The translations under genes were made by a program, and so were the position numbers. 54,876 bases of DNA from a virus. Taxonomy: Duplodnaviria; Caudoviricetes. A model generated the notes under the pieces. It did not search any database and was not told the origin of the DNA. It was given only the letters and a program-made list of their open reading frames with translations. Shown piece by piece: positions 800 to 52,669 of the stretch (its first letter is position 1; every line of letters begins with the position of its first letter). The DNA lies in IMG/VR virus record IMGVR_UViG_3300035126_000263, positions 1 through 54,876 of that record, one strand, 5' to 3'.

Positions 800-2031
800 T
801 AGTATACCTCCTCAAGTTTTGAGATGTCACCACGCATGATGATTTCCGTAGAATAGTTCCTCTGCCCACGGCGGTTCTTCTTGATCGTCAACCTACTCTT
901 TTCCTTGATGTGTTCGATATACACTACTTGGTCAGAGTGCATTCCGATTGCCCGTGATTCGCGGAGTCTTCCTTCGTCATTAAGCTGAGAAGCTGTGAGC
1001 ATAATCGAGTTATTCTTGAGTGCCGCCAGTTTTAAGCGCCTTGCAATCTCTGAAATCTGGCTTTCCCTACCTTCTTCACCATCAGATGAGATAATTTGGA
1101 GGTAATCTACGACAATTACATCTGCCCGTTTTTCCCCCGTATACCGATTTATATGGCATTCTATCTCGTCAATTTCGGCTACTCCATCCACGATTTCAAG
1201 GGGTAACTGGTGTAATTTCAACAATGCGGCACTGATTTTAGCAAGTTCGTCTTTGTTTGCTGTCTTGTAATCTTCCGGTTCTCTGATCGGATACCCTGCC
1301 AAGTTGCAAGCCATGCGAGTTAGGATGTCCTTCGCTTTCATCTCAAGGCTGAAGAACAGAACCGACTTACCTTCTTCAAGATTTGCGAGTGCCGCTTGGA
1401 CGAGATAGATAGATTTACCACCACCAGTCTCTGATGCTACTGTCATCATCTCGCCTTTGTGCATTCCACCCTTCAGCGCACGATCTACTTTGAGTAATCC
1501 AGTAGGAAAGAAATCCTTTACTGCTTTTCCTTCCATCTCGTCGATGATTTCGATGATGAGGTCTTTGACTGGTTTCACTTTCGTCGTCCGATCTTCGGCC
1601 AAGTTCATTATCGTTTCCGATAATTCCTTCAGATTTGCTTTGCCTGTCCGTAGGTTTACTTCTTCCTTCTCCATGAGAGTAAGAACATCGCGGTATGCCT
1701 TCGTGCGGTGCAGGTGTTTCCGGTAGTCATCTGCCATGTCTTGGCAAACCTTACCCGAAGCTACCTTCATCGTGCATAATGTGTCGTGGACAGATTCTTC
1801 ACCACCCGCCGCTTCCAACTGCCCAGTTGCTTCAAGCTCTGCAATCGTAGAAAACGGGCAGCAAGACCCTGTCCGCTGGTGAACCCCTTGTAGCGCATTA
1901 AAAACGATTCTGTTGGCTGGTATGGCGAAATAATCGCTATCCCATGTTTGTTGGGAAAGGATGTTTCTGTCGATTGCGATGAGCGACAACGCTGCCGCTT
2001 CACTCTTTCGTGCTATTGGGACTTTTTTCAT
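799..2031 (-). CDS. dnaB: Replicative DNA helicase, DnaB family
   Basis: Walker A ASETGGGKS, FSLEM, VIVVDYLQI, SQLN..GRLRES, KNRRG motifs; DnaB-like N-terminal domain. Confidence 0.93.
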   Translation of the reverse strand: MKKVPIARKSEAAALSLIAIDRNILSQQTWDSDYFAIPANRIVFNALQGVHQRTGSCCPFSTIAELEATGQLEAAGGEESVHDTLCTMKVASGKVCQDMADDYRKHLHRTKAYRDVLTLMEKEEVNLRTGKANLKELSETIMNLAEDRTTKVKPVKDLIIEIIDEMEGKAVKDFFPTGLLKVDRALKGGMHKGEMMTVASETGGGKSIYLVQAALANLEEGKSVLFFSLEMKAKDILTRMACNLAGYPIREPEDYKTANKDELAKISAALLKLHQLPLEIVDGVAEIDEIECHINRYTGEKRADVIVVDYLQIISSDGEEGRESQISEIARRLKLAALKNNSIMLTASQLNDEGRLRESRAIGMHSDQVVYIEHIKEKSRLTIKKNRRGQRNYSTEIIMRGDISKLEEVY

Positions 2032-2864
2032 TAGAATGAATTGTTGTTATGGAATTTGTCTGGGTTGATTATGTTTTTTGAGCGGATGACCCAATTGGCG
2101 AGAAAGCCCCTCGTATATTTTCGATCTGGACGTGATAGCAACCAAGTCTGTGCAGCCTTAACTTCGCGTTCCACGTCTTTGTCTGGATTGAGACGCTGGA
2201 GTTCAGCGATAAATTTTTCGTCAACTGGTTTTGATTCCCGCGATTTTTTATTTCGTGGGGGGGCGGACGGCATTGGGGGGGTCGTTCCTTTGCCATCGGC
2301 AGATTTCAGTTCGGCGGTAGCTGAACCCGAAGCGTGAGCTTCATTTGGGTTAGTCGGGAAAAGATTAGTTTGAGTTGAGGAATGTGAGGCCACTGCCGAA
2401 CTTTCCCTTGATGGTTCTATTTTCGGTTCATTATGATGGTTCATTATAGATGGTATGAACTGGTTCATAGGGCGGGTGGTATGAACTGGGTTAGAGGGGG
2501 ATGGTGTGAACTGATTCATACCATCACTTGTCCTGTGCTTGCTTTTTGGTATAGCCAAATAGATCACATCCTTCGTCAATTCATCATCGCCAACTTTGTT
2601 CAAATTGAGCTTGTAGGTATTCGATGTTCGCCGCCCAACTGGGCTGAATCTCTCCTCCGCTTCAACCAATCCAATCTTTTCAAAAGCATGAAGAAACTTC
2701 CTTGTCGTTTCCTCGGATATATTCGCTTTCTTGGCAATAGTCTTAATTGACGGGAAGCATACTCCCTCATCACTGCAAGTATCAGCTAAAGACAAAAGAA
2801 CCAACCTTGCGTTACCTTGGGTCTTACTACGCTCAAAGACCTCTGACATTATTCGGACGCTCAT
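2031..2864 (-). CDS. Phage replication initiator (N-terminal HTH, lambda O-like)
   Basis: ARLVLLSLAD...CFPSIKTIAKKANISEETTRK...RTSNTYKL HTH typical of phage replisome organizers; directly upstream of dnaB; internal iterons. Confidence 0.8.
   Translation of the reverse strand: MSVRIMSEVFERSKTQGNARLVLLSLADTCSDEGVCFPSIKTIAKKANISEETTRKFLHAFEKIGLVEAEERFSPVGRRTSNTYKLNLNKVGDDELTKDVIYLAIPKSKHRTSDGMNQFTPSPSNPVHTTRPMNQFIPSIMNHHNEPKIEPSRESSAVASHSSTQTNLFPTNPNEAHASGSATAELKSADGKGTTPPMPSAPPRNKKSRESKPVDEKFIAELQRLNPDKDVEREVKAAQTWLLSRPDRKYTRGFLANWVIRSKNIINPDKFHNNNSF
2410..2523. repeat. Putative replication origin iterons inside the initiator gene
   Basis: TGGTATGAACTGG at 2451 and 2477, TGGTGTGAACTGA at 2502, inverted copies (TATGAAC-TG-GTTCATA), GGTTCATTA repeats at ~2425 and ~2438. 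Confidence 0.65.
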
Positions 2865-3142
2865 TTTGATCCTTCCTGCCAGTTTGCATCTTCATTCAAT
2901 ACCCACTTTATGGCGTTATTCAGTTTTAAGAACCGAAGTCCAACCAATGTCATAAAAGCGTTGTGAGCTTGCGTCTCTGTAATGCCAATTATGTCGGCGA
3001 CAGATTTGATGTCTTTTGCGTCAAAGCCACCATCGTAATTATCAATGACTGCGAATACTTGCTTCTTCTTATCGTCGATGATCGACAATCTGATTATTTC
3101 CTTACGAACGAAGATGCCTCCGTTCTTTTCTAATGGGTTCAT
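2861..3142 (-). CDS. Small winged-helix DNA-binding protein
   Basis: DIKSVADIIGITETQAHNAFMTLVGLRFLK HTH-wing pattern; ATG 3142 preferred over 3223 because the upstream part is a structured leader. Confidence 0.6.
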   Translation of the reverse strand: MNPLEKNGGIFVRKEIIRLSIIDDKKKQVFAVIDNYDGGFDAKDIKSVADIIGITETQAHNAFMTLVGLRFLKLNNAIKWVLNEDANWQEGSK

Positions 3143-3290
3143 TTTATAAAAGGCGACCCCTTGTGGCAGCGGATAAAAGCGGCAACTGACGCATGAAGGT
3201 GGATTACCACCACAAGGGATCATATAGTTTGTTTGTTAATTTAATTTTATCCTATCCGGCCTTCACCCCGGATGTGCAATTTCTCGCACA
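3143..3290 (-). promoter_or_regulatory. Structured 5' leader (attenuator-like) of the replication operon
   Basis: Two 5' hairpins (GAAA tetraloop; GGUGAAGG loop) and a 12-bp stem 3221-3210/3166-3155 followed by U-run. Confidence 0.55.
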
Positions 3291-3295
3291 ACTGA

Positions 3296-3324: not shown

Positions 3325-3350
3325 GCATCTTTTTTTATCGGTTACGATAA

Positions 3351-3719
3351 TCAGTCCAGCGTAACTCTACCAATTTCACCATTCGACCAGTCATACATTC
3401 TGTTATTGAGTAGTTCCCAAATTTGGTTAGCGTCTTCAGTGGATTCGCATTGATAGGTTGCGCGTTTCTCTCCAACGCCTGTATCGGTCACAACAATATC
3501 AAGTCGGATTATTATACTACTATCAGTTCCGGTGGCTACGATGATAGCGGTGTGGTCTGGTTTGATTGCCATCACAAGAATACCATCCTCGTTTTCGTAG
3601 GTAGCCATAAACGGGGTGTCCAATGCACCAGATAAAGATATGTTTGCTATCAAGACGGAATGCCTAATTGCTGTAATCAATTTTTGTGCTTTATCGTTCA
3701 TTTCGTTGGTGTTATCCAT
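3351..3719 (-). CDS. Hypothetical protein
   Basis: ORF track 3351-3737; ATG 3719 chosen because it lies just after a -10 box (leaderless). Confidence 0.7.
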   Translation of the reverse strand: MDNTNEMNDKAQKLITAIRHSVLIANISLSGALDTPFMATYENEDGILVMAIKPDHTAIIVATGTDSSIIIRLDIVVTDTGVGEKRATYQCESTEDANQIWELLNNRMYDWSNGEIGRVTLD

Positions 3720-3727
3720 AAGCAACC

Positions 3728-3773
3728 AAAGTATCAAAAAAGTATTGACTTGTCAATAGTCTTGGTTTATTTT
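3728..3773. promoter_or_regulatory. Divergent sigma70 promoter pair with abutting -35 boxes
   Basis: Plus: TTGACT(3745)-17-TATTTT(3768). Minus: TTGACA(3756)-17-TACTTT(3733). The -35s form the palindrome TATTGAC-TT-GTCAATA. Confidence 0.7.
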
Positions 3774-3775: not shown

Positions 3776-4114
3776 ATGCAAATGAAACATCCATTAGAAA
3801 CTGCTTATGAATCCTGCATGAGTGCCTACGAGCAATCACGCACGATCCGTTCTCTTGGACGAAAGACTTTCGCCAGCCAGCTTCGTGAAACAAGGAGATT
3901 GCTGAAATTGACTGTCCGTGAACTTGGAGATAAGATCGGCGTTACAGGATCACTGGTCAACCAGATTGAAGTAAACTCCAAGAGTATCCTAAAGAAAGAA
4001 CAAGTCGAAAAAGTAATCGCCCTATGCTACAAAGAAAAACGCCCCTACAGGCAAAAACAGGATTTAAAAAGCGAGGCGGAAAGCTCAGAGCAGTCTCAAG
4101 CTCCCGAAGAGTAA
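3776..4114 (+). CDS. XRE/Cro-family HTH transcriptional regulator
   Basis: QLRETRRLLKLTVRELGDKIGVTGSLVNQIE classic HTH_3 pattern; start may be ATG 3782. Confidence 0.8.
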   Translation: MQMKHPLETAYESCMSAYEQSRTIRSLGRKTFASQLRETRRLLKLTVRELGDKIGVTGSLVNQIEVNSKSILKKEQVEKVIALCYKEKRPYRQKQDLKSEAESSEQSQAPEE

Positions 4115-4840: not shown

Positions 4841-6715
4841 TTACCAATCTCCGTTATCGTCTGATCCGTAGTCATCGTCTTGAGTGGTATCAATTGATAC
4901 CTCATCCCGCGCCCAGAATCGGTTAGTTGGAACTGGTTTATCGTTACCGATAAAAACAAGTCCATTACGCCGCGCCATTTCGAGGGCATAGATTAAGCTA
5001 TCACTCAAGTCGGGCGAGTATCCCGTTCTTCCTTTAAGCTCATCTTTAGTCTCAATAGCAATCTTCTTGGACTTGATCGTGTATCGGCGCAGGCAAAGTT
5101 CCCGCGCCAAATCTGAAGCAGGATCAATCCCAAAGATAACGCGACTCTTAAAGGCGTGATAGGCCGAGTAGTAGTATTCAGACACAAGCCTATCGTAAAC
5201 ATCCTTACACGGGCGTTTATCAACCTCTGCCGCGATTCGGTCAGTAGGTTTACCCATAGATGAGATAAGAGCGATAGCGGCCCCAGAAGCGTCAAAACGT
5301 AGCCACTCACGAATGATAGCTTGCCCAACTCGCCCACCATCACCGGACACGTCCATACCAAACTTAGATGGCTGAACGCCAGCCGCGCGGCACAACTCAA
5401 CAACTTCAGTAGCAAGTTGGATTTCAAACTCGGCAGCGGCATTAGCAGATAGTTGAATTACCTTCTGACTTTCCAACCACATAACACGATTGCGAGTTCC
5501 GCGCACGAACCCAAGTTTAGCGATAGTAAGAACGCATCTGTCGCCGCCAATTGTAAATGCGGTGTCAAAGCCAGCCACCTTAGTAAAGCCCTCGGAATCC
5601 CATAATGGTTCTTCGTTGGTATCAGCATTACGAATCAAATCAGCAGTAAGAATGGTCTGAGCGAATCCAGATTTTGGCCACCAACCGATAGCGTTACGCA
5701 CATAGTCAATTGCATTCTCGTCTCCATAACACAACTTGAGCATTTCCTGTTGCTTCTCCCGATCCATAAGGAATGGAAATGGAGATGGTTCATTTGGAGG
5801 CGCGGCGAAGTTTGGGCTACGCATACCGTTGTAGAACAAGCAAACGCCAGTCTCGGTTTCCCACTTATCCATATCTGGACTGACTGAATCAAAGTTAGAG
5901 CAACCTTTAGGCATAGCCCAACGGGTATGTGGGTTATCTCCAGCGGATGGGTTTCCAATACCTATGAATGTCTTGTCATTGTTTGATGCTAAGTTGGTTC
6001 TTGCAGTAATCGCGCCCAGTTCCATTTCGGGTAACTCATCAAGTGCAAGGCGAACTCGATCATTCTTACGACCACGGGTGGTATCAATAGCTTTCTGACC
6101 TTCATTACCTGATTGAAATGCGAGAGCTTTAATAGCATTTCGGTAGTCTTTATCCTCATCGTTAGACGCGCCACCCCATACAATCATATGACGATAGTCG
6201 ATGAGTTTACCTATTTGAACGCGAGCGCATTTATAAAGTTTGGAGATGATACCCCAGATACGATCTTCGGATGCACCCAAAGTGGTAGTGGCTACCCAAG
6301 ATGAAGTGCAATGCGGGGCAGAACACCAATCAAGATAGACCCAAAGACCAACTGGAAAACTTTTTCCCATCGAAGCGGCTCCGGCCAAACAGATGTCAGT
6401 ATTACTACAAAGTTCATCGAGGGTTCTCAGCAATTGGGTATTGGTATAACCACGATTGACAATAGAAACTTCAGTTGGCCATTGGAGCTTAACTGCATTT
6501 ATAAAATGCTCAGATGGGGAAAGTAGTTTAAAATCTGAAAGATTTATATTTTTCCTAACACAATAAGTTCTACCATATTGCCCTCTGCTTATTGCATAGC
6601 AAAACAACTCAATACCAAGATCGTCCATGTTTTCTGGAAATTGCATTCCGTAACGACGAATACCTTTGTTTGAAGAAAAAACTCTTGACATATCAATAGG
6701 AAAATATATTTTCAT
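4841..6715 (-). CDS. terL: Terminase large subunit
   Basis: Walker A LAGAASMGKS, Walker B LALDE, GIGNP motif, RNase H-like nuclease AGFDTAF.GGDRCV and SPDLSDSL; start may be ATG 6691. Confidence 0.88.
   Translation of the reverse strand: MKIYFPIDMSRVFSSNKGIRRYGMQFPENMDDLGIELFCYAISRGQYGRTYCVRKNINLSDFKLLSPSEHFINAVKLQWPTEVSIVNRGYTNTQLLRTLDELCSNTDICLAGAASMGKSFPVGLWVYLDWCSAPHCTSSWVATTTLGASEDRIWGIISKLYKCARVQIGKLIDYRHMIVWGGASNDEDKDYRNAIKALAFQSGNEGQKAIDTTRGRKNDRVRLALDELPEMELGAITARTNLASNNDKTFIGIGNPSAGDNPHTRWAMPKGCSNFDSVSPDMDKWETETGVCLFYNGMRSPNFAAPPNEPSPFPFLMDREKQQEMLKLCYGDENAIDYVRNAIGWWPKSGFAQTILTADLIRNADTNEEPLWDSEGFTKVAGFDTAFTIGGDRCVLTIAKLGFVRGTRNRVMWLESQKVIQLSANAAAEFEIQLATEVVELCRAAGVQPSKFGMDVSGDGGRVGQAIIREWLRFDASGAAIALISSMGKPTDRIAAEVDKRPCKDVYDRLVSEYYYSAYHAFKSRVIFGIDPASDLARELCLRRYTIKSKKIAIETKDELKGRTGYSPDLSDSLIYALEMARRNGLVFIGNDKPVPTNRFWARDEVSIDTTQDDDYGSDDNGDW
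6685..6712 (+). promoter_or_regulatory. Sigma70-type promoter for the head operon
   Basis: TTGACA-16nt-TATTTT upstream of ATG 6728, overlapping the terL 5' end. Confidence 0.55.
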
Positions 6716-6727
6716 TTCAAAAGCAAG

Positions 6728-7105
6728 ATGAAACTAAAAAACAAAAACCTCGCACCAATCGGCGGCTGGTTCTGGAAATACGAAATCAAGCGCGATAAAC
6801 TCACATTCCCTGCAATTGTTCATGGTAGCACATGGAATTCCTTGATAAAAAATATCGAGAAAGACTATCGCTCAAATAACATCGAACTTCCTACTAACAT
6901 CGAAGAGATGGTTGAAGATCAAATCTGCCAGCGTCAACCAAGTGATCGTTGCTGGTATAGTGATGGACTTGGAGACAAGATCGCTCAAGCCATCCATACA
7001 GTTGCAGCGGTAACTGACAAAGTTTTGAAAACTAAACTTGAACAGAAAGCTAAAATATGTCCTTCATGCAATAAACGTAGGGCCGTATTGAATAAATTAT
7101 CCTAA
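6728..7105 (+). CDS. Hypothetical Cys-containing phage protein
   Basis: QICQRQPSDRC and GLGD...CPSCNKRRAVLN motifs. Confidence 0.75.
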   Translation: MKLKNKNLAPIGGWFWKYEIKRDKLTFPAIVHGSTWNSLIKNIEKDYRSNNIELPTNIEEMVEDQICQRQPSDRCWYSDGLGDKIAQAIHTVAAVTDKVLKTKLEQKAKICPSCNKRRAVLNKLS

Positions 7106-7117
7106 AAGATAAAACAT

Positions 7118-9613
7118 ATGCTTTCCGTAGGTAACGACCAATTTTCACTTGCTGTTTTAGATCAAGATGGCAAACCACCCGAAACGCGAATCTCCAACGC
7201 GAACCACGCTTGGAACATAGCAAATCATTTGCGACTCGCTAACATCGGGCGTGAGAATAAGCGTTTACGTATATACAAAGCATACAAATCTTTCCCCCCT
7301 ACAGGATACAGCAAGCTTGCCGAAAAACGTTTGCCTTGGCAATCTGACGTTAACTATGGACAACTTAGTTTTATTGTTGATAACCAGAAGTCCAGTTACT
7401 ACGATGTAATTACGGAACGGCAGGCTTGCTGCACGATCAAAAGTAAATTTGGCAATGAAAAAGAACGCCTCGTTAACTCAGAGAACATTGCAATTGCATT
7501 TGACCAAGCAATCCGTGAATGGCCCGGATACCTCTACAACACAGAGCAAGACCTTGAGGAAATGTTGCTGTATGGAAAAGGAATTGGAATGTGGGATAGC
7601 CCACTCGGATGGATGCCAGAACACGTTTACCTCTCCGACCTTCTTTTTCCAGATGACATTAGGATTGACTTTTGCAACCTTGAAGAGTTTGTGCGCCGTG
7701 TCCGTTTGACACCATACGAACTCTACAAGAAGATCGAGAATCGTGCAGCGGCAGAAGCAATGGGATGGAATGTGGACGCAGCAATTGATGCTATCCGTTT
7801 CCATCGTGCATTCAGCAACCATCGTAAGACCCGTGAAGATTTCTTCCGCACGATTAGCGAATCTGGATTCAACTGGTCACTCTCCGTAAACCAAAAGATC
7901 GACCTCTACGAAGTTTACTGGAGGGAGTTCGACGGAAAGATCAGCAAGGCGATTATCCTTCAAGACTATCAACCAATCTCGGATTACATCAACTCCAATA
8001 TCAAAGGAGCAGGCAAGATCAGCGAAGATGACATCAGAACCCAGCACGGGTTTATGATGCTCAAGGTAGGACTCTTCAACTCATGGGATGAAATCATGTA
8101 TATGCTCACCGATTCGGTTGGCAGCGGACTCTTCCAAGACATCAAGAGCCAAGCGGAGTCGGCGTTCGTCGCCTGCCGTCAGTATGACTTCACGATGAAC
8201 TCGCTGGTTGATGCAGTGCGCCTCAACTCCATGTTGATGATCGAAGGGCAAGGGCCAGACGCAACTAAGATGTTGAAGCAGATGGAATGGTTGCCGATCA
8301 GCGTCATGCCAGACGGGGCGAAGTTCATCCAGAACCGCTTCCAGCTTCCAGTAGCAGAAAGCATGAGCTTCATGCAGTTCTTCATGGGAGATATGTATCG
8401 CGGAATGGGTCAGTATCGCATCAACGCTCCTACTGCTGGAGGAAAGCAACGCACTAAAGGTGAAGCTGAATTGGATGCGGCTGAGTCAGCTAAACTATCT
8501 GGAACTCAGATTCGTCGATTCAACGAGTGTCAAACTCTCTACTTCAAACAACTCTACAAACGCTTCGTAAACGCAAAGTCCAGCGATGATGGATACGAAT
8601 ATGTGAAGAAGTTCTATGAAGTATTGGAAGAACTCGGCACTCCGAAAGAAGCCGCTGCTTGGAAGAACATCACAAGCATCCGTTCTAACCTCATCAACGG
8701 GGCTGGCAGTCCGTCATTCAAGCTCATCACGGCAGAGAAGCTATTGAGCATTACAGCAATTACTCCAGCCAATGAAGGGCAAGAGAACGCAGTTAAAGAT
8801 GCAATCGCGGCACTCTCTGGCAGGGACAACGTAGCTCGTTACCGGAATACCAAACCAACAAAGATTACTGATACTGCTCGCGTAATTGGATTTGAGAATG
8901 CTGGCATGACAGATGCGTTCGTTAACCCTCAAAACTTCCCAGTATTGCCAACTGATCCACATATCGAACACGCAGTTGGTCACTTGCAGGACATGATGAT
9001 GCAGTTGCAGATGAACCTGCAATCCGTGCAACAAGGTCAACCAGAGCTTGCAGAACTTTCCAAAGCAGTCCGCTCAGTCAAATTCAAGGGTGGTCACATC
9101 ATGGCGCACGTTGAATATATCAGTAAAGACCAATCCAAGCAGGACTTCTTGAAGCAATTCATGCAGGGAATGAATGAAGCGCAAGCGATGGCCGACGAAC
9201 TTCAACAAGTTTACGTCCAAATGGCTGAAGCTGAAGCTCAGAAATCTGGTCAACCTAACTCCGAGGAAGACATTAAACTTCAATACCTTGCTGCTAAATC
9301 TGGCATCGAAATCGACACCAAGAAGAAGCTTGCTGACATCTCGATTGGCAAGGCTTCTATCAGTCACGCTCAACGCACCGAGCAGCGTAAGGAGCAAGGC
9401 ATCACTCAACTCGCACTTCAGAAGGCTAAAGCTCGCGCTGAAATTCAAAAAGAGAAATCAAAGCAAGCAGCAATGCAAGGCAAAGCTCCAGAGATGGAAG
9501 AGCCAAAGATGGAAGAAGAACCAGAAGAAATGGAGACTGAAACCGAAGAGGTTGATACTCCAGAAGAAACTGAAGAAGTTGAGATGGAAAATAATATCAC
9601 ACCAATGCAATGA
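7118..9613 (+). CDS. Portal protein
   Basis: 831 aa, lies between terL and scaffold/capsid; LLYGKGIG segment, Q-rich helical barrel and acidic tail as in P22-like portals. Confidence 0.75.
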   Translation: MLSVGNDQFSLAVLDQDGKPPETRISNANHAWNIANHLRLANIGRENKRLRIYKAYKSFPPTGYSKLAEKRLPWQSDVNYGQLSFIVDNQKSSYYDVITERQACCTIKSKFGNEKERLVNSENIAIAFDQAIREWPGYLYNTEQDLEEMLLYGKGIGMWDSPLGWMPEHVYLSDLLFPDDIRIDFCNLEEFVRRVRLTPYELYKKIENRAAAEAMGWNVDAAIDAIRFHRAFSNHRKTREDFFRTISESGFNWSLSVNQKIDLYEVYWREFDGKISKAIILQDYQPISDYINSNIKGAGKISEDDIRTQHGFMMLKVGLFNSWDEIMYMLTDSVGSGLFQDIKSQAESAFVACRQYDFTMNSLVDAVRLNSMLMIEGQGPDATKMLKQMEWLPISVMPDGAKFIQNRFQLPVAESMSFMQFFMGDMYRGMGQYRINAPTAGGKQRTKGEAELDAAESAKLSGTQIRRFNECQTLYFKQLYKRFVNAKSSDDGYEYVKKFYEVLEELGTPKEAAAWKNITSIRSNLINGAGSPSFKLITAEKLLSITAITPANEGQENAVKDAIAALSGRDNVARYRNTKPTKITDTARVIGFENAGMTDAFVNPQNFPVLPTDPHIEHAVGHLQDMMMQLQMNLQSVQQGQPELAELSKAVRSVKFKGGHIMAHVEYISKDQSKQDFLKQFMQGMNEAQAMADELQQVYVQMAEAEAQKSGQPNSEEDIKLQYLAAKSGIEIDTKKKLADISIGKASISHAQRTEQRKEQGITQLALQKAKARAEIQKEKSKQAAMQGKAPEMEEPKMEEEPEEMETETEEVDTPEETEEVEMENNITPMQ

Positions 9614-11169: not shown

Positions 11170-11214
11170 TGGGGGAGGTAGTTTGTCGCTGTTCTACCTC
11201 CCCCAATTTTTTTT
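11170..11214 (+). terminator. Rho-independent terminator
   Basis: GGGGGAGGTAG...CTACCTCCCCC followed by T8. Confidence 0.8.
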
Positions 11215-11225
11215 AAAAAAAACTC

Positions 11226-11445
11226 TTGACATAGTAAATAGGTGATTGCAATGTCCAGCGCAAGAGATATACGAAATTATCGTTTACGATAAAATTAGTG
11301 ATTCAGCCGTACTCTGGCTGGCGAGTATCAGCACTCGCATCAAAAGCTGTTTCCGGACTGGTCTTGAAAAAGACACCGAGGGTTGAACTCCGGCTCGAAA
11401 ACAACAAGCATTCGCTTGGGGCTTTCGGGCCTTTTGCGTTTGTAA
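11226..11445 (+). promoter_or_regulatory. Capsid gene promoter, palindrome site and structured 5' leader
   Basis: TTGACA at 11226, palindrome at 11277, consecutive hairpins 11294-11435 with GAAA and UUCG tetraloops. Confidence 0.55.
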
Positions 11446-11494
11446 ACCAAACTAAAACCAAAACCAAAAATCAAACTCAAACAAAATAAATATT

Positions 11495-12907: not shown

Positions 12908-12967
12908 GTTAAATAGGGGAGGGGCTTATTCAAGCCTCTCCCCACAACCTTAAATAAAATACAAAAT

Positions 12968-13582: not shown

Positions 13583-13593
13583 ACCTCAACCTT

Positions 13594-13634
13594 GGGTGGG
13601 GAAGTAAATACTTCCTCACCCTCACCACTTTTTC
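13594..13634 (+). terminator. Probable terminator
   Basis: GGGTGGGGAAGTA-AA-TACTTCCTCACCC then T-run. Confidence 0.55.
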
Positions 13635-13640
13635 TAAATT

Positions 13641-13934: not shown

Positions 13935-13956
13935 TTATCGTAACCGATAAAATATT

Positions 13957-20511: not shown

Positions 20512-20543
20512 CTAAAACTAAACTATCGTTAACGATAAAAACT

Positions 20544-38452: not shown

Positions 38453-38525
38453 GCAAACTGCATTGGGTTTGTTTCATGTTATTCATTAGGGGACGCACCT
38501 CGGAGAAATTCGGGGTGCGTTTTCT
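38453..38525 (+). ncRNA. Candidate small regulatory RNA
   Basis: About 70 nt with no ORF between a promoter and an intrinsic terminator; three CAU triplets. Confidence 0.5.
38492..38525 (+). terminator. Rho-independent terminator
   Basis: GACGCACCTCGGA-GAAA-TTCGGGGTGCGTT-TTCT. Confidence 0.8.
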
Positions 38526-38572
38526 GTTATCGTAACCGATAAAAATATTTTCTAAAAAGTATTAAAAAAATG

Positions 38573-44350: not shown

Positions 44351-44538
44351 CGGCCATTCCTCCTCGCGTTATCCAAGGCACGGCGGCACTGCATCATCAA
44401 GAGCGTGTCACCATCACCATAAGCATCAAGAACGGCTTCCAAGGCTTCCATCATCTCCCGCTTTACTGACTCCCCACTAAGTGGAGAGTCTTTGAATCTG
44501 AAGAGGGGTTTCTGTTTGTGTAAGTTAAAGGTTCTCAT
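44347..44538 (-). CDS. Hypothetical protein
   Basis: ATGA-coupled 63-aa ORF. Confidence 0.6.
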   Translation of the reverse strand: MRTFNLHKQKPLFRFKDSPLSGESVKREMMEALEAVLDAYGDGDTLLMMQCRRALDNARRNGR

Positions 44539-44702
44539 TTCTTGAATGGGATGGATTTGATATTGCTGTCTGGATAAACGGTGGACTTGATTTTTGGAAG
44601 GTCACTTACAGATGCAGCAGCAGCAACATTCCATAGGTGAATATATGCTTCCGGTGGAAGGCAGGTTGATTGTGTAACTGTTTTGTTTGGTGTTAGTTTC
44701 AT
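44535..44702 (-). CDS. Hypothetical protein
   Basis: ATG 44702 after A/C-rich leader. Confidence 0.6.
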   Translation of the reverse strand: MKLTPNKTVTQSTCLPPEAYIHLWNVAAAASVSDLPKIKSTVYPDSNIKSIPFKK

Positions 44703-44736
44703 TGGTTTTGTTTGGTTTGTTGTGGAGGGAAATTTA

Positions 44737-44765
44737 TTGACAAGCGGAAAGGCATAGAATAGAAG
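44737..44765 (+). promoter_or_regulatory. Promoter giving a leaderless transcript
   Basis: TTGACA-17nt-TAGAAG, ATG 7 nt downstream. Confidence 0.5.
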
Positions 44766-44771
44766 GGGCGC

Positions 44772-45335
44772 ATGAAACAAGAATACAATGCGGAAACGCT
44801 CGGAACCCGTCGAAGGAAATGGGATGTTGCGAAGATAGAACAACTATACATGGCAGGCGCGGAGCTTGGTGACATTCTCAAGACTCCTGAGTTTTCCAAG
44901 TTGTCGAAGAACTATCTCAAAAATTTGATGGTGCAAGGGAAATGGATCGCAAAGCGAATCAAACTGCGTGAAGAGGTAGCGAACACGCTTGCGCCAAAGA
45001 TGGAAGATGTAATGCGGAGGGAAACGGAAAACCATTACAACTTCATGCTGACTCAAATTGCGGAGGAGAGAAAGCAAATTGAAATCAGGAACAAATCGGG
45101 GAACATTAAAGACCAGTCCGCTCGCCTCGATGTATTGGCGCAATACGAGAAAATGGCTACCAGAGCGTTGGGATTGGATGAGAATAACCTTCACGACAGG
45201 AAAGGGTTAAACATTAACGCAATGATTTCGCTCCATGTGGAGGGGCCAAAAAAAGCAGTCGATATTGATATTGTTCCCGTGGAATGTTCCAACGCTGTGG
45301 AGGGGGAGTTTGAACCCGTGGAGCGGCAACAATAG
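44772..45335 (+). CDS. Putative terminase small subunit
   Basis: N-terminal HTH (WDVAKIEQLYMAG...GKWIAKR), central helices ending RALGLDE, C-terminal IDIVP tail. Confidence 0.5.
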   Translation: MKQEYNAETLGTRRRKWDVAKIEQLYMAGAELGDILKTPEFSKLSKNYLKNLMVQGKWIAKRIKLREEVANTLAPKMEDVMRRETENHYNFMLTQIAEERKQIEIRNKSGNIKDQSARLDVLAQYEKMATRALGLDENNLHDRKGLNINAMISLHVEGPKKAVDIDIVPVECSNAVEGEFEPVERQQ

Positions 45336-45413: not shown

Positions 45414-45641
45414 TTATTTCCAGACTGGGCCGAGGCTTTCCAGATAACGATACATGGGCGTGCCGATAGGAATGCGGCGGTGAACACCATCCCGGCGAAT
45501 CCATTCGCAATCGTAGATTTTTCCTTCACCCGTGAACCACGCCGAGCAATGGCCCGTGAAGTAAGGGGATGTGACTTTGTGGAGGGCGAATGACTTTGTG
45601 GGAAATACGCCGCCTTCAAAAGTGACTTTTTGGATTTTCAT
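45414..45641 (-). CDS. Hypothetical early protein
   Basis: 75 aa, ATGA-coupled. Confidence 0.6.
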   Translation of the reverse strand: MKIQKVTFEGGVFPTKSFALHKVTSPYFTGHCSAWFTGEGKIYDCEWIRRDGVHRRIPIGTPMYRYLESLGPVWK

Positions 45642-45901
45642 GCTTCCCCCTTTGCTTTGCGGAGTGTGGAGAGGGCATCAGGAAGCCAAGCGGAAAGGAT
45701 AGGATTTCCTTCATCATTGGCAAGCTGAACCCGTGCAACGGCGGCCTCAAGCAAATCAAGCAAATCGGGAGCGGCTGAAATGAGGCGAGCATTGGCAAGA
45801 TTGCCGCTGTGGAGGGCGCAAATCTCGCTTTTGCCGTGTTTAATCAATCCCCATGTGGAATCATGTTTCCAAGGCCCGGGTGTGTGGAGTGTATTATTCA
45901 T
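45638..45901 (-). CDS. Hypothetical early protein (HTPGPW...ANARLIAAAPDLL family)
   Basis: HTPGPW and ANARLISAAPDLLDLL motifs common in phage early genes; ATG 45901. Confidence 0.75.
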   Translation of the reverse strand: MNNTLHTPGPWKHDSTWGLIKHGKSEICALHSGNLANARLISAAPDLLDLLEAAVARVQLANDEGNPILSAWLPDALSTLRKAKGEA

Positions 45902-46102
45902 TAGTTTGTGTTGTGTTGTGGTTTGTTGTGTTGTGGAGGGAAAAGTGGAAGGGGGTATTTTATCGGAAACGATCATTGCCGCAGGAATGCGCGATAGTGG
46001 AAAGGAAGGTAAAGAGTGCGGAAAGGTAATAAAAACGCGATAGCGGGACGATTAGAGCAAAGCGGGAGAGGTTCGGACTCTTCCCGCATAGTGTGGAGGG
46101 GA

Positions 46103-48059: not shown

Positions 48060-48870
48060 GATAGGGGACAAGCAAGTCTCGTTCCACTCTTCTATCGTTA
48101 TATAGCGATATTTGCCATACTAAGTATGGCAAGAACATCATTAGCATCTTTCATGCCATCGCTCTATCGCTAAACAGCGATACTTGCCATATTGCGTATG
48201 GCATAGCAATCTCCGCAACTTGTTTCCGGTTTTCCATGCCATCACCGAAAATGCGATTGCCTCCAAAAATCCCCAATGCCGATACACCATCCGTTTCATT
48301 CCACGCAATCCTGTGCCAACCTCGCGCAAAGATTATTGCAAGCCGCTTGCATTATGTCATCCTGCTAATGAGACTGGTAGCTTCTGATAATATCAGTATG
48401 AAATAGCGGCGGCCTTTCCAGTCTCAACAATGCCGGACATCACCCGCCAATCATTCCGGCTCATCGCTCATCACTCGACTATGAGCAACGCTGCACGCTG
48501 CACAGCCGAGACTATACTAAGCAGGAACGCGACACTGGCAGGCCGTAGCACGGCGGCGTAAGAAATCTATTTTTCTATAGGACGGCGACCCCATCACCCC
48601 CCTGCCCCACGCACCCCAGCGCGCCAGCTCCCAATGCGGAAACCCCTCTCCCTAGAAAAACCGCTATTTTATGCAATGCGTATCTTTATCCTCTCCCCAT
48701 AAAAACTCCATTTTTTACCTATACGCATCTTTATCTCCCCTATGCTTCGCACCCATGCAGCTACGCTGACCCATGCTAAAGTCTTATGCTTTGCTCTAAT
48801 GTCGTATGCTGATGTCTTATGCGCTGCTCATGTGCAGTTATCGGTTCCGATAATCGTGTGCTAACCATCC
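48060..48870. other. Large non-coding region (candidate genome terminus/packaging region)
   Basis: About 800 bp with no credible ORF; tandem double hairpins, C-tracts, YATGC repeats. Confidence 0.5.
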
Positions 48871-49418: not shown

Positions 49419-49568
49419 TTATCGGTTACGATAATTGTTAGCTGCCGCCCATCCTTGTCGGAAGGTTACGCAGATTAGTTCTTGGGAGAATAACCAAACG
49501 TTGAAGTCCTCGTATTGGTCTGTTAACCACGGATAGTAATTTAAGAATGCCTTGTGACAGTCTTTCAT
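49419..49568 (-). CDS. Hypothetical protein
   Basis: ATG 49568, coupled. Confidence 0.55.
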   Translation of the reverse strand: MKDCHKAFLNYYPWLTDQYEDFNVWLFSQELICVTFRQGWAAANNYRNR

Positions 49569-49648
49569 TTTCTCGTTGTTGTTTCTACTATGAAGCAGGC
49601 TACTACTATGCTCCATGCTAAGATCATTGCCATTACTTGGTCATTCAT
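49565..49648 (-). CDS. Very small membrane protein, not in ORF track
   Basis: MNDQVMAMILAWSIVVACFIVETTTRK, ATGA overlaps at both ends. Confidence 0.45.
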   Translation of the reverse strand: MNDQVMAMILAWSIVVACFIVETTTRK

Positions 49649-50463: not shown

Positions 50464-50670
50464 TCATCTTAATTTTCTCAATACTTCTTTTGCGTAGTCT
50501 GATAGATGTCTCGCGGACAATCCAGAGTGTGCTATGTATACAAGTGCAGCTATTGCTTCTTCTCGTTCACGCTCCAATTGACGTGCGTGTCTCCATATAA
50601 TCGGATGAGATAATCTTGCCGCGCTTCCAAGCTGATCTTCAATATGGTCTGTTTCTGGTGTATCGCTCAT
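50464..50670 (-). CDS. Hypothetical protein (MSDTPETD...LERERxEA type)
   Basis: ATG 50670 coupled to the glycosyltransferase stop. Confidence 0.65.
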   Translation of the reverse strand: MSDTPETDHIEDQLGSAARLSHPIIWRHARQLEREREEAIAALVYIAHSGLSARHLSDYAKEVLRKLR

Positions 50671-51785
50671 GGATAGTATCTGTTCATTGCTTCGATGTCG
50701 TTTCCTTTGGCATACCACCCGTCTCCAGTGTAAACATCCATGACATCTGAGAAATATTTCTCATACATGGGTGCTACCCGCTCCAAGATGAAGTTCTTGC
50801 CGAATCTGTGGCAGTCGTATGGGCAGATTCGGTCTATGTTATTGATCGCATCTACGTAGTCACCCATAGTCCGGCAGCGGAATCCTGTTATCCCGTGCAG
50901 ATTATTCTCGGTAAAACTACCCCAGTCAGAGGTAATTGTTGGAGTGCCAGAGAGTAGGTTTTCTATTTGGACTCCACCGAATGGTTCTACATACTGACTT
51001 GGTAGAAAGGATGCTTTAGCCCTCGACATGAGCCTCTTTCTGGTAGGAACATCGGCGTATCCTACATAGTGAACATGGTCTGGGAGTTTATAACCTTCCT
51101 CTTTTTGGCCTGCGATGACTAGTTTAACCCCTGCTCGGTAGGTAGCTTCAATGGCAATATCTACACCTTTTCCAGAGTATACCCTACCAAGATAAAGAAA
51201 GTAATCTTCTTTCTGGCCACAGAAGTCGAAGTCTTCTTTATCGAAGTAGTTTGGGATTACCACAGCATAGTTATCTTGCTGGCAATTTCCTACTGCCTGC
51301 ATTCCACAGAACGCATGGTAGATTGCGTAGGATTCAAATACTTTCCACCGCGCCCAATGTCCACCTGCATATCCAATACCCGGCTCAACTGTGATTAGGT
51401 CTGGATGCGCGTCACAGATTGGACGAACGCCACTGCCCCAAAATGGGAGAATAAAGTCGTTCTTTTGCTTACGCTGCCCGATTGCCTTAATCGCGTTTCG
51501 GTAGAAGGTTTGGTAGGCATGGTCATTCGTATCAAATTTAAAGAATGTTTTCCTCCAGTCATGTGATCCATAGCTTTTGTTGAAGTCATCGTTGGTTAGG
51601 ACAGGGACGTGTTCTGTGCAGATTAAGTCTGAATCTTCGTGTCCGTAGTGGATTACTTCATGGCCGCGCTGGGTCATCATTTTTGAAAATTTCAAAATTT
51701 TTTGTGTGTAAGCACACGCATTAAATTCTTTACTTGTAACAGTATGCGGAATCCCAAGAGCATGAAATCTAAATTTGTTATTCAT
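50667..51785 (-). CDS. Glycosyltransferase, GT-B fold (GT4-like)
   Basis: YLGRVYSGKGVDIAI, EPFGGVQIENLLSGTPTITSDWG. Confidence 0.88.
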   Translation of the reverse strand: MNNKFRFHALGIPHTVTSKEFNACAYTQKILKFSKMMTQRGHEVIHYGHEDSDLICTEHVPVLTNDDFNKSYGSHDWRKTFFKFDTNDHAYQTFYRNAIKAIGQRKQKNDFILPFWGSGVRPICDAHPDLITVEPGIGYAGGHWARWKVFESYAIYHAFCGMQAVGNCQQDNYAVVIPNYFDKEDFDFCGQKEDYFLYLGRVYSGKGVDIAIEATYRAGVKLVIAGQKEEGYKLPDHVHYVGYADVPTRKRLMSRAKASFLPSQYVEPFGGVQIENLLSGTPTITSDWGSFTENNLHGITGFRCRTMGDYVDAINNIDRICPYDCHRFGKNFILERVAPMYEKYFSDVMDVYTGDGWYAKGNDIEAMNRYYP

Positions 51786-52566
51786 TATTTTTTATGTAGT
51801 AAAATTCATTTGGCTTTGTTTTGATGCGGTATAGTATAGTAGTATGTGAAACGCCATAATAATCAGCTGCTTCTGCTATACTATTAAATATTCCATTTGT
51901 AGTTGATACTGGCTTACAACGAAAAGAACTTGCCTTTTTCATTTTATCACGAGTTTCTTTAGATTTTTTTTTACCTAACATAGAGCGACTAATCTTGTCA
52001 CGTTGTTCATTAGGCATTTTTATCCCTTTTCTGACTTCACTCATTTTAGCACGATGAGAGTCAGAAAATTTCATACCTATTCTAACGGCACTCATTTTTG
52101 CGCGTGTTTCAGCGGTATGTTTTCGCCCAGTTAGTATCTTAATTAACTTTTTACGATTTTCATCAGACATTTTTCTACCAGTAACAGCTATTCTCATTTT
52201 CTCTCGTGTTATGTCTGATACAATGATACCTTTTCTAATTTCAGACGACATTTTCCTACAAAAATCAAAACGTCTTGAGTTAATACGAACCTCTCCTAAT
52301 CTCGACATGGCAACACAAGCTCTCTGCATACGACGATAATTGATATTCTTAATACCATAGCGGTATAAATAAATTTTTGCTAATAACTTATGTGCTAAAA
52401 AATGTTGTCTTCCTGTTAATATTACAGTCCTATTATTACGTCCGAAAATACTAATAGGAAATACATGATGGGATTCAGTGTATTCATTGCTTGAATGAAC
52501 AGCATTTTTTATCAGAGCAATATACCACTGACAATATTTTCGCCAACGATGGTAGTTTGTTTTCAT
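51778..52566 (-). mobile_element. Free-standing HNH homing endonuclease with NUMOD3 repeats
   Basis: ESHHVFP...LTGRQHFLAHKLL; repeated G.KHT.ETR.KMS; C-terminal FNSIAEAA..Y HTH; AT-rich; own promoter. Confidence 0.85.
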
Positions 52567-52597
52567 AATTTCAAAACCATAAAATATGGTTTACTAA

Positions 52598-52626
52598 ATT
52601 TTACTACCTTCTTGGTTTAATGTCAA
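52598..52626 (-). promoter_or_regulatory. Promoter of the homing endonuclease
   Basis: TTGACA-17nt-TAAAAT. Confidence 0.75.
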
Positions 52627-52669
52627 GCCCAAGGCAATGGAATCTAAATTTATCGTTAACGATACTCAT
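52604..52669 (-). pseudogene. Stranded original 5' end of the glycosyltransferase gene
   Basis: MSIVNDKFRFHCLGLDIKPRR* versus GT start MNNKFRFHALGI. Confidence 0.8.

Follow-up and report, generated by a model that had tools for sequence, protein, structure and literature searches.

A 16-bp palindrome, TTATCG-KWWM-CGATAA, recurs along the whole window, by which we mean the complete metagenomic phage genome of 54.9 kb (54,876 nucleotides) analysed here. The sites are most likely docking points for a dimeric DNA-binding protein made by the phage, through which the whole genome is controlled or organised. The window holds 12 perfect copies, 5 copies with one mismatch and 2 copies with two mismatches, and the array is a trait of an uncultured lake-water phage family with about 20 copies per genome. 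We propose, at a probability of roughly 0.45, that the palindrome is the site of a phage-encoded symmetric dimer, taken here as the protein encoded at 40940, and that it serves genome-wide transcription control.

The array was described in an earlier note on this DNA. As an observation it is confirmed as a whole, and its interpretation is partly supported. All of the 12 perfect and five one-mismatch copies claimed there are present at the positions given. The claim that chance would hardly produce the motif also holds, with a mean of 0.00 perfect copies in dinucleotide shuffles and 12 copies reached in 0 of 100 shuffles; at up to one mismatch, 17 matches are observed, where shuffles average 0.20 and never exceed 2. 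The window shows no enrichment of half-sites as such (52 in total, 24 of them within perfect motifs; composition alone predicts about 32). The two weaker copies, at 7097 and 26045, have two mismatches each and are genuine, because relatives conserve their arms: the arm major-allele frequencies are 0.974 and 0.986, respectively, against 0.794 and 0.813 for the flanks. The spacer is constrained as reported, being K-W-W-M at 19 of 19 sites. Among the 47 window matches at up to three mismatches, exactly these 19 carry such a spacer and none of the other 28 does. The sites are as follows.

1608–1623, perfect, within the DnaB-like helicase gene (799–2031, minus strand), between its N-terminal and its C-terminal domain; identical in 28 of 28 distinct relatives, with a flank major-allele frequency of 0.82
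3335–3350, perfect, begins right after the stop of a conserved 128-aa gene (3351–3737, minus strand); followed 3' on the minus strand by N10-TTGACA-N17-TAGTTT
4938–4953, perfect, in the 3'-terminal part of the gene for the putative terminase large subunit (4841–6715, minus strand); first site past the XRE operon, its relative position in the gene kept in the relative G004 (0.94 versus 0.96)
7097–7112, decayed with two mismatches, 5 nt ahead of the ATG (7118) of an 831-aa gene; a perfect copy in 41 of 48 distinct relatives
11277–11292, perfect, 5 nt ahead of GTG 11298 and upstream of the major capsid gene (11495–12907); a terminator (11171–11215) and TTGACA(11227)-N17-CAATGT lie upstream
13935–13950, perfect, occupies the gap from stop 13934 to ATG 13957
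20523–20538, one mismatch, 5 nt ahead of ATG 20544 and overlapped by TTGACT-N17-AACGAT
25608–25623, perfect, intragenic (gene 25049–25855)
26045–26060, two mismatches, intragenic (gene 25855–27861), kept among relatives
28565–28580, perfect, in the gap between stop 28564 and ATG 28586
33800–33815, perfect, within the 1972-aa gene, at a relative position of 0.22 shared with G004
36966–36981, one mismatch, within the 1972-aa gene
38527–38542, perfect, adjoins the terminator 3' of the 1972-aa gene, with TTGACA-N17-TAGATT 30 nt downstream
40464–40479, perfect, intragenic (gene 40076–40897), 476 nt upstream of the 40940 ParB-fold candidate gene
44097–44112, one mismatch, within the SF2 helicase gene (42722–44350, minus strand), at a relative position of 0.15 shared with G004
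45960–45975, one mismatch, overlaps the ATG of the ORF 45638–45976 (minus strand)
48838–48853, perfect, in a variable small-ORF region
49419–49434, perfect, its TAA serving as the stop of the ORF 49419–49616 (minus strand), 1 nt from ATG 49417
52650–52665, one mismatch, right after stop 52666 (minus strand), then N23-TTGACA-N17-TAAAAT, the promoter of a homing-endonuclease gene

Reading the coordinates bears out the claim that intragenic copies lie in different frames and give IVTDN- and LSETI-type peptides. At sites 25608, 40464, 36966, 4938 and 44097 the frame yields I-[VG]-x-D-[NK], with KVIVTDN seen in translation, and at sites 1608 and 33800 a second frame yields L-S-E-x-I. The gene names attached to these copies fared unevenly: DnaB (Pfam DnaB_C, 2.8e-30) and the SF2 helicase stand, TerL is weakly supported by a PHROG match of 8e-8, and the names 'SSB', 'tail' and 'ejection' find no family match.

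Selection acts on the DNA, as had been suggested, since the arms are near-invariant whereas the flanks and synonymous positions drift. At 15 orthologous sites, each with at least 3 distinct relatives, the arm major-allele frequency is 0.93–1.00 versus 0.78–0.96 for the flanks, and the intragenic sites hold their positions between clades (G000 versus G004). The copies also stand out in the codon-preserving comparison named in the earlier note. For copies wholly inside manually chosen coding sequences, 6 perfect copies are observed versus a mean of 0.19 (maximum 2) in 300 synonymous-codon shuffles, and 9 copies at up to one mismatch versus a mean of 2.03 (maximum 6); the observed counts were reached in 0 of the 300.

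The whole chromosome is covered, at intervals of 0.4–6.6 kb, close to the 0.5–7 kb given earlier. The spacing is more even than random placement, with gap CV values of 0.40–0.54 versus 0.93 and P ≤0.004 in five of six genomes, including G004. Gene junctions are preferred, again as claimed: by crude gene calls in six genomes, 48 of 114 sites are at junctions, compared to an intergenic fraction of 5–7%. For 5 of the 19 window sites, a TTGACW on the sense strand is no more than 60 nt away.

Ten other near-complete relatives have 12–27 copies each. Perfect copies number 12–15 in each of G001–G005, and copies of the 14-bp core 17–27 in each of G006–G010, with 0 for the reversed-pattern control in both groups. 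The distant lineage L535 (GC 55.5%) has recognisable counterparts of only 4 of the 80 window ORFs that were called automatically, yet 14 core sites occur in 21,011 bp of it. In a viral comparison set of 113 loci, each holding at least one exact 16-mer, the 93 loci related to the window have 1–9 copies, and each of the 20 whose tblastx coverage to the window is ≤0.04 holds a single copy. A search for the exact 16-mer in bacteria, with one genome per species, gave at least 120 stretches, and the 80 matches listed are all single copies in scattered taxa. These single copies in unrelated viral contigs and bacterial genomes are chance matches, and the sites are restricted to this phage group. No matching host regulon was found, in keeping with the earlier remark that the motif fits no recognised consensus.

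The site is dyad-symmetric and fits a symmetric dimer, in support of the dimeric binder deduced earlier from the palindrome. The spacer constraints share this symmetry (K/M, W/W, a central AT step avoided): the centre over 566 oriented family sites is AT in 1, TA in 189 and AA/TT in 376. TA or CA/TG centres are preferred in other clades, and the spacer orientation flips among orthologous sites. Over 52 distinct site sequences, base-pair changes in the arms break the pair 30 times, are compensated in 2 cases and yield G-T in 4. The symmetric constraints and the uncompensated arm changes together point to a double-stranded DNA site for a symmetric dimer rather than an RNA hairpin.

Three other accounts of the array were weighed against these observations. 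That the element acts as RNA, through a 6-bp transcript hairpin for processing or stability or for an RNA-binding protein at gene starts, has a low probability in our estimate. Many copies do lie -2 to +6 nt ahead of start codons; however, this proximity follows from the very short intergenic gaps. Two RNA contigs, from runs X19 and X20 (3035 and 3022 nt), have their first base at 11276, immediately ahead of site 11277, a weak hint, but a promoter about 50 nt upstream would also fit this start, the true 5' ends of transcripts do not show in contigs, and site 20523 is crossed by another RNA contig. The hairpin is weak (-3.6 to -6.7 kcal/mol), its arm changes are rarely compensated, its loop constraint is reverse-complement symmetric with an orientation that flips at orthologous sites, and the intrinsic terminator test found no T-run 3' of the sites. 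A-rich loops are favoured on the sense strand, AA 311 versus TT 65 in family-wide counts of non-independent sites, where composition predicts only 1.6–2.1 to 1. Given this AA excess and the two RNA contigs, an added RNA-level role is conceivable. It seems equally hard to credit that the sites serve chiefly as substrates for recombination or for a nuclease, either linkers for cassette exchange or targets of a phage nuclease or resolvase. Sites do border variable cassettes (past the 128-aa gene, around the tail-fibre genes and within the small-ORF region), the homing endonuclease gene adjoins site 52650, some copies in L016 and L535 form the tip of longer inverted repeats, and an exonuclease gene lies beside the 40940 gene in the window lineage and in L535. 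However, copies are kept inside the dnaB, terL and helicase genes without any cassette boundary, about 20 palindromic cut sites in its own genome would be costly to the phage, and the even spacing and promoter overlap are left unexplained. Some phages carry host-factor sites, and a host regulator or nucleoid protein borrowed by the phage could bind the palindrome, though we consider this improbable. The recruitment of a host factor suggested in the earlier note finds no support because bacterial genomes, among the 80 of at least 120 matches listed, give only single exact 16-mers, as do the unrelated viral contigs. The spacer preference also shifts between phage clades, which fits a binder evolving with the phage.

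A phage-encoded dimer is the preferred reading, and the candidate that we favour is the following.

40940–41920, plus strand, 326-aa protein, candidate binder with a central helical domain and a C-terminal five-strand beta domain

In its AF2 model (pLDDT 91), the central domain resembles the DNA-binding HTH domain found in ParB, Noc and SopB. When folds in the PDB are searched, ranks 1–12 are taken entirely by chains of ParB, P1 ParB or Noc, at probabilities of 0.60–0.99; against 6y93, the DNA-binding domain of Noc, the model reaches TMt 0.55, with an rmsd of 3.3 over 85 columns. It should be mentioned that this fold match is weak, with a best Foldseek E-value of 0.11 and none ≤0.001, and that a profile search against PDB sequences gave no ParB match. 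Pfam has no match in the protein and no consistent match among 60 homologues, where five families are matched by one member each. The earlier note had listed this protein among possible binders as 'LmbU-like'; it is still a candidate, but the label has no Pfam match and the model resembles instead the ParB/Noc DNA-binding domain. A ParB/Srx CTPase domain was seen neither as Pfam ParBc at E ≤0.01 in the protein nor among the matches of the 60 homologues, and inspection of the translation by eye found no GERR-like arginine patch. The recognition helix, KKSY[PS]TVSGYAR[AT]C[RK], shows hardly any change across 11 genomes, in which the whole protein falls to 50–60% identity. The L535 homologue is 33% identical, and one core site lies 49 nt upstream of its gene. 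Across the 11 genomes the nearest site upstream of the 40940 gene is at 476–2399 nt, with none consistently adjacent. The gene adjoins an exonuclease gene in the window and L535 lineages.

In the proposed mechanism, the half-site would be the 8 bp TTATCG-K-W, with the centre read indirectly via DNA shape. The 40940 protein would be the binder by virtue of its ParB/Noc/SopB-like HTH and near-invariant recognition helix, and a small XRE dimer (3776) could be its partner or an alternative binder. The sites, about 20 per genome, are placed at gene junctions, close to or on top of sigma-70-type promoters and, where long genes offer no junction, within those genes, so that the bound protein would be able to reach the genome throughout. 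Genome-wide transcription control would be the most likely effect, with repression where sites overlap promoters and read-through blocked or damped elsewhere. Several points do not sit easily with this scheme: the XRE protein is an equally classical candidate binder, the sites at late structural gene junctions fit poorly with a simple early-shutoff repressor, the weak 40940 fold match comes with no detected CTPase domain or ParA partner, and no site consistently adjoins the 40940 gene.

The XRE protein and the promoter region beside it are described by two features.

3776–4114, plus strand, 112-aa XRE-family HTH protein, alternative or co-operating binder candidate
3745–3756, TTGACTTGTCAA, a TTGAC-NN-GTCAA palindrome formed by face-to-face -35 boxes of the divergent promoters of the XRE gene and the 128-aa gene

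This protein, also proposed earlier, keeps its place as a candidate: it is a predicted homodimer, and in 3 of 10 genomes the motif overlies the promoter next to its gene. It matches Pfam HTH_3 (4.3e-05, 23.9 bits versus a cut-off of 23). The homodimer prediction scored 0.80 in each of three runs, against 0.00 for the best of three controls; among proteins solved as pairs, 20 of 30 reach this mark of 0.80, and among those solved as single chains 1 of 23. The dimer model, for which our own alignment was the input, has 100% contact agreement between runs and pLDDT 81, and the HTH appears free in it. The second palindrome, TTGAC-NN-GTCAA, is found at the XRE promoter in 10 of 10 genomes with XRE. 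The 16-bp motif is over the promoter in 3 of them, displaced past the 128-aa gene in 5 and absent in 2. In G004, G007 and G008, and in the partial loci L420 and L421, it covers -10/+1 of the leftward promoter beside XRE, with the arrangement TTGACA-N18-TATCGT in four of the five. The site directly after the 128-aa gene is the nearest upstream site in 39 of 42 distinct XRE loci, and the nearest downstream site is 0.8–1.5 kb off, past the XRE operon, in 40 of 42, so the XRE cassette is site-free and bracketed. The subfamily, with 103 homologues all at least 57% identical over the aligned part, is confined to this phage group. The third protein put forward earlier, a 'winged-helix' protein at 2861, was rejected, since it has no Pfam match and, with partial matches in only 2 of 5 relatives, is not family-conserved.

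That the XRE protein alone binds the palindrome, as a Cro/CI-type repressor with operators genome-wide, stoperator-like with a symmetric site, is possible but doubtful. The HTH_3 match, the predicted homodimer, the motif over -10/+1 at the five loci, the bracketed cassette and the restricted subfamily all argue for it, and the 6-4-6 geometry suits 434/P22-type operators. The helix variants also track different spacer preferences, a co-variation confounded by phylogeny. However, the recognition helix varies (GSLINQIE, GSFINQIE, GQLISQIE, GALINQIE) whereas the arm core is invariant, and one helix is common to G004 and L407, whose centre preferences differ. In 2 of 10 genomes there is no site within 1.8 kb upstream of XRE, the constant TTGAC-NN-GTCAA is a natural alternative XRE operator, and the 21 kb of L535 examined has no XRE homologue. 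Operators of 434 and P22 are palindromes with arms of about 6 bp, in which the uncontacted central bases are constrained by DNA shape. The lambdoid Cro/CI binder is a small HTH_3 dimer encoded beside a divergent promoter pair, and its operators, about six, are clustered at two promoters. The XRE protein is similar as an HTH_3 protein with a predicted symmetric dimer, but the palindrome has about 20 sites genome-wide, and in 7 of 10 genomes the XRE promoter itself has none.

Of the roles raised in the earlier note, the stoperator-like and the parS/Noc-like ones may be regarded as the two closest analogies. In a report on cluster A mycobacteriophages (L5 gp71 and relatives), more than 20 repressor sites over a genome of about 50 kb silence it, mostly in short intergenic gaps and also at a promoter; the stoperator is an asymmetric 13-mer bound by a monomer with two domains, and its orientation must follow transcription (PMC9283540). 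The present array likewise has many dispersed sites over a phage genome, often at gene junctions. In contrast, its site is palindromic rather than asymmetric, with a spacer orientation that flips among orthologues, and many copies are intragenic. Cluster A phages are temperate, with an immunity repressor and an integrase or parABS, whereas no integrase or lysogeny gene was found among the scanned window ORFs, many of which have no family match.

The parS and NBS palindromes of ParB and Noc are 16 and 14 bp long. The phage array resembles the ParB, KorB and Noc systems in having a short palindrome (13–16 bp) in several copies, 19 in the window, often inside genes as for parS and NBS, where a ParB-type HTH dimer is the reader. 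The fold search would place the 40940 model beside these proteins, at a best E-value of 0.11. However, the 40940 protein has no sequence-level membership or detected CTPase domain, and the phage sites are not clustered by an origin. A partition role proper is not supported because no ParA-like protein was found among the scanned ORFs, 51 by Pfam and 20 by PHROGs (10 by PHROGs only), the remaining ORFs being <75 aa.

The IncP plasmid RK2 carries 12 OB sites in three position classes, namely at promoters, at a distance, and far from any promoter. In one report, RK2 KorB brings about global gene silencing as a dimeric HTH protein of the ParB family acting via OB palindromes, and KorA is a dimeric HTH co-repressor of about 100 aa with its own palindrome, OA, at promoters (PMC11790492). 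The likeness to KorB-OB would lie in a short palindrome dispersed over a replicon of about 55–60 kb and in a global silencer of this family, with the 40940 protein as the predicted counterpart. The differences are that KorB, with its CTPase domain at the N-terminus, is a sliding clamp, whereas no such domain was detected in the 40940 protein; that OB is 13 bp and unrelated in sequence to the phage palindrome; that KorB is also a partition protein with a ParA partner, none being found in the phage; and that RK2 is a plasmid, whereas the present replicon belongs to a phage in which integrase and partition genes are apparently lacking. The KorA-OA pair, a small HTH dimer with its own promoter palindrome, may be paralleled here by the XRE protein and TTGAC-NN-GTCAA.

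Twelve perfect copies of the 16-bp palindrome TTATCG-KWWM-CGATAA, each named here by its start coordinate, are present in the window as the earlier note had counted, compared to a mean of 0.00 in shuffled sequence. The five one-mismatch copies were also recovered, bringing the total to 17 against a shuffle mean of 0.20. The two weaker copies carry two mismatches each, and the one at 7097 is a decayed form: 41 of 48 relatives have a perfect site there. The constraint proposed for the spacer holds in full, with a K-W-W-M spacer at 19 of 19 sites and at 0 of the 28 other window matches with two or three mismatches. Half-sites alone are not enriched in the window. Six of the perfect copies lie wholly within coding sequence, where 300 synonymous-codon shuffles gave a mean of 0.19 and a maximum of 2; the shuffles fall short of the observed copies, and a codon-preserving shuffle is thus removed as an explanation of the counts. 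A full-text literature search with the two arm hexamers returned primer-type matches only, a result that does not establish the motif as unpublished.

The array is shared across the family and is under selection. Five other records of 49-55 kb, which have most genes in common with the window and as relatives are not independent samples, contain 12-15 perfect copies each, compared to 0 for a reversed-pattern control. In each of five near-complete genomes from more distant clades, the shorter form TATCG-N4-CGATA occurs 17-27 times. A capsid protein at least 77% identical to that of the window is encoded by >150 viral contigs. Of 113 viral loci with an exact 16-mer, 20 are unrelated to the window and contain a single copy each, and the 93 related ones have up to nine; in bacterial genomes, the matches listed for the exact 16-mer are single and scattered over taxa. 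Orthologous sites show almost no variation in the arms, compared to drifting flanks. Conservation of the arms and spacer of site 1608 in dnaB is 1.00 versus 0.82 for the flanks (28 distinct sequences), and that of the arms of site 4938 in the terminase gene is 1.00 versus 0.88 (39 distinct sequences). The intragenic copies also keep their relative positions between the window and its relative G004 (0.94 and 0.96 in the terminase gene, 0.22 in both for the giant gene, 0.15 in both for the helicase gene). The site is highly constrained: it has been retained within essential genes and also between lineages that have almost no recognisable proteins in common.

The palindrome appears to be a DNA site and not a hairpin in RNA. 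Reverse complementation leaves the spacer rule unchanged, K being matched by M and W by W. At the central step, TA or AA/TT is found, with AT in one of 566 oriented sites, and the other clades prefer either TA alone or CA/TG. These centres of the other clades are flexible pyrimidine-purine steps, as would be expected for indirect read-out at the dyad. Spacer orientation differs between orthologous sites, and arm changes broke the pairing 30 times and were compensated twice. The corresponding RNA hairpin is weak, at -3.6 to -6.7 kcal/mol. Sense-strand spacers do have AA over TT more often than composition predicts, in counts that are not independent, and the ratio of 12 to 3 in the window alone is not significant by rough calculation. 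The RNA evidence consists of Logan contigs only, in which an uncovered part carries no meaning. Two lake metatranscriptome runs each have a contig of about 3 kb over the capsid operon (window 11276-13953) that begins 1 base ahead of site 11277 and crosses site 13935 into a different downstream gene; the highest RNA contig depth is in the capsid region. At best, the contig starts at this site give a weak hint.

The window is the entire virus record of 54,876 bp, and its bases 1-127 are identical to 54750-54876. The same 127-bp repeat is found in the close relatives G004 and G005, and is probably an assembler (k-mer) overlap of a circular or permuted map rather than a physical end, so that the label 'direct terminal repeat' may mean a circular assembly only. 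Fourteen of the 18 listed DNA run rows with the window sequence are labelled as lake or freshwater metagenome, the other four being soil or plain metagenome. There were no isolate relatives among 50,697 phage records by megablast of 15 kb or by tblastn of the capsid and terminase proteins. With gene calls of our own, made by manual or greedy ORF choice, the recognisable genes encode a DnaB-like helicase, an HTH_36/DnaD-like protein, an XRE protein, an SF2 helicase, a terminase (weak match), an exonuclease, a glycosyltransferase, tail fibre or spike proteins, a dCMP deaminase, a Hjc-like resolvase, an NrdR-like zinc ribbon and a homing endonuclease. No lysogeny or partition genes were detected in this widespread freshwater phage group. 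Most late genes (6728-42607) have A-rich leaders (...AAATAWWT-ATG) without a Shine-Dalgarno sequence, several early minus-strand genes are preceded by GGAGG-like sites, and TTGACA-N17-TAnnnT promoters are clearly present. The features discussed below are as follows.

2031-2864, HTH_36/DnaD-like protein
3351-3737, minus, 128-aa gene
3776-4114, plus, XRE protein (112 aa)
11171-11215, strong intrinsic terminator after the 427-aa gene
38490-38526, strong intrinsic terminator after the 1972-aa gene
40940-41920, plus, 40940 protein (326 aa)
44772-45335, plus, ORF of 187 aa
49845-50357, minus, dCMP deaminase, early region
50667-51785, minus, glycosyltransferase (phrog_3408, 2.9e-189), early region
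51778-52566, minus, homing-endonuclease-like gene
52869-53126, minus, NrdR-like zinc-ribbon protein (85 aa)

We favor the 40940 protein, with its apparent ParB fold, over the XRE protein as the candidate binder of the palindrome, at a probability of about 0.45. The protein has homologues in 105 representative clusters and no Pfam match. Its model is confident (pLDDT 91), and the twelve best PDB fold matches of the model are all ParB, P1 ParB or Noc chains, with SopB and Spo0J lower down. It should be noted that the E-values of these fold matches are weak (best 0.11, none at or below 0.001), and a search of the PDB with the sequence profile found no ParB. Its look-alikes in the atlas are unnamed clusters only; a 'DUF1016/ParB HTH' atlas cluster, with a score of 0.92, is a lead only. 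The HTH region, FKKSY[PS]TVSGYAR[AT]C[RK], is nearly unchanged in 11 of 11 genomes, with identity over the whole protein going down to 50-60%. A homologue only 33% identical is found in a distant lineage, L535, on a 52.8-kb metagenome contig with 55.5% GC. The 21 kb of this contig covered by our counts is matched by just 4 of 80 automatically called window ORFs and contains 14 core sites, whose spacers are of the same kind. One of the sites is 49 nt upstream of the start of the 40940 homologue, and a repeated TTGACG promoter is preceded by two others at 12 and 22 nt. Three further members of the 40940 family were not found, P0229 and P0235 being sought in viral contigs and P0226 in metagenome contigs.

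The XRE protein comes second, as a less likely candidate binder. It is an HTH_3 protein of a subfamily limited to this phage group, and it is predicted to form a homodimer via residues 5-39 and 71-84 that would leave the HTH free. The predicted homodimer, made with our own alignment, scored 0.80 in three of three runs (pLDDT 81), with contacts agreeing 100% between runs and the best of three controls at 0.00; among proteins of solved structure, 20 of 30 pairs and 1 of 23 single chains reach the mark for this score. However, the recognition helix of XRE differs between clades, and a different palindrome, TTGAC-NN-GTCAA, is located at the XRE promoter in 10 of 10 genomes that have the protein. 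In the window this palindrome is TTGACTTGTCAA at 3745-3756, forming two face-to-face -35 boxes of the divergent promoters of XRE and the 128-aa gene, with a one-mismatch copy of TTGACTTGTCAA at 6685-6696 in the divergent terminase/6728 junction. It may be the putative operator of the XRE protein itself; TTGAC-NN-GTCAA has two matches in the window at up to one mismatch, which is not above chance. XRE may also be a partner of the 40940 protein, by analogy with KorA and KorB. The 2861 protein, also proposed earlier as a binder, has to be dropped, being not conserved in the family, and the same applies to the HTH_36/DnaD-like protein. The NrdR-like zinc-ribbon protein was rejected as a binder as well: no homologue was found in G007-G010, near-complete genomes of other clades, and the protein varies widely within a clade that has one common motif. 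This protein, with homologues in G001-G006, has an NrdR-type zinc ribbon (PF22811, 1.1e-13) without the ATP-cone; as a guess, it may act on host NrdR boxes and change ribonucleotide reductase expression.

Six genomes together have 114 sites, of which 48 are at gene boundaries by crude gene calls, compared to an intergenic fraction of only 5-7%. The gaps between genes are very short and the motif is often the entire gap, as in the stop codon, motif, 1-6 nt, start codon arrangement at 13935, 28565, 7097, 20523, 11298 and 49417; because of these short gaps, the fixed distance to the ATG is not read as a separate signal. Distances between sites are more even than random, with a CV of 0.40-0.54 versus 0.93 (P<=0.004 in five of six genomes, which are related to each other, G004 being the most independent). 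The placement of sites with respect to promoters is not constant. The motif covers the -10/+1 region of the leftward promoter beside XRE in G004, G007, G008 and the partial loci L420 and L421, with the arrangement TTGACA-N18-TATCGT in four of these five. Site 20523 overlaps TTGACT-N17-AACGAT, the start expected from TTGACA-N17-CAATGT is about 15 nt upstream of site 11277, and a -35 box is located 10-30 nt downstream of sites 3335, 38527 and 52650. In 39 of 42 distinct XRE loci, the first site on the upstream side comes immediately after the 128-aa gene, and in 40 of the 42 the nearest downstream site is beyond the XRE operon, so the XRE cassette is site-free and bracketed by sites. Two other readings of the placement were rejected. 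As a promoter element, the motif has no constant -35 or -10 partner, its distance to the start codon ranges from -2 to +6, and 40% of the half-sites are TATCGG; as for in-frame internal starts that would follow intragenic sites, there is no conservation of the TTG after site 1608. In the variable small-ORF region, some copies of the motif form the tip of inverted repeats that are much longer and have similar flanks (L016, a viral locus, 5875-7984, four copies; L535 at 11971, 14325 and 15796), an arrangement that recalls repeated regulatory cassettes flanking small phage genes.

We propose that a dimeric phage protein would occupy about 20 sites over the whole chromosome. Global transcription control is judged the most likely effect. 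There are sites that overlap core promoters and others at module boundaries, and the XRE cassette has sites on both sides; an organising or protective role is also conceivable in view of the even spacing and of the sites located between late genes. A bolder and rather improbable version is that a ParB-fold protein without the CTPase clamp domain and some 20 evenly spaced palindromes would make up a genome-wide 'chromatin' system, in which the protein would act on the phage chromosome as a whole, by marking, silencing or shielding it, rather than on single promoters as a regulator, with a set of sites old enough to outlast almost complete protein divergence. If true, phages would have a genome-organising system of a new class.

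To our knowledge, dispersed arrays controlling a whole replicon come from only a few systems, e.g. RK2 KorB, the cluster A stoperators and P1 C1, all of them from plasmids or temperate phages of cultured hosts. The comparable array described here defines an abundant, uncultured lake phage group, of which >150 related contigs were found. KorB-OB with KorA-OA on RK2 (PMC11790492) is nearest in logic to the phage array; KorB has a CTPase clamp and a ParA partner, unlike the phage system. The nearest phage case is the stoperators (PMC9283540), which are asymmetric, orientation-dependent and bound by a monomer, and differ in this from the phage array. The phage palindrome is unlike the KorB-OB/KorA-OA or stoperator sites in sequence. 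If the binder is the ParB-fold 40940 protein, the ParB DNA-binding module would have been recruited in phages without a CTP clamp or ParA. The system is testable without the host, requiring two small proteins and one 16-mer, and the motif is a simple marker of this phage group in metagenomes.

Some other features of the window are mentioned here. The glycosyltransferase and the dCMP deaminase of the early region may point to nucleotide or DNA modification. The ORF at 44772-45335 has no family match, overlaps minus-strand ORFs at 44535-45194, and is conserved in five of five close relatives, with 31% identity in the distant L535. The homing-endonuclease-like gene, with NUMOD3, NUMOD1, HTH_psq and an I-TevI DNA-binding domain, separates site 52650 from the glycosyltransferase gene, as an insert with a promoter of its own, TTGACA-N17-TAAAAT; its homologue is absent from G001-G005, and in the viral locus L054 the site directly abuts the glycosyltransferase gene. 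Downstream of each of the two strong intrinsic terminators, there is a copy of the motif together with a TTGACA promoter.
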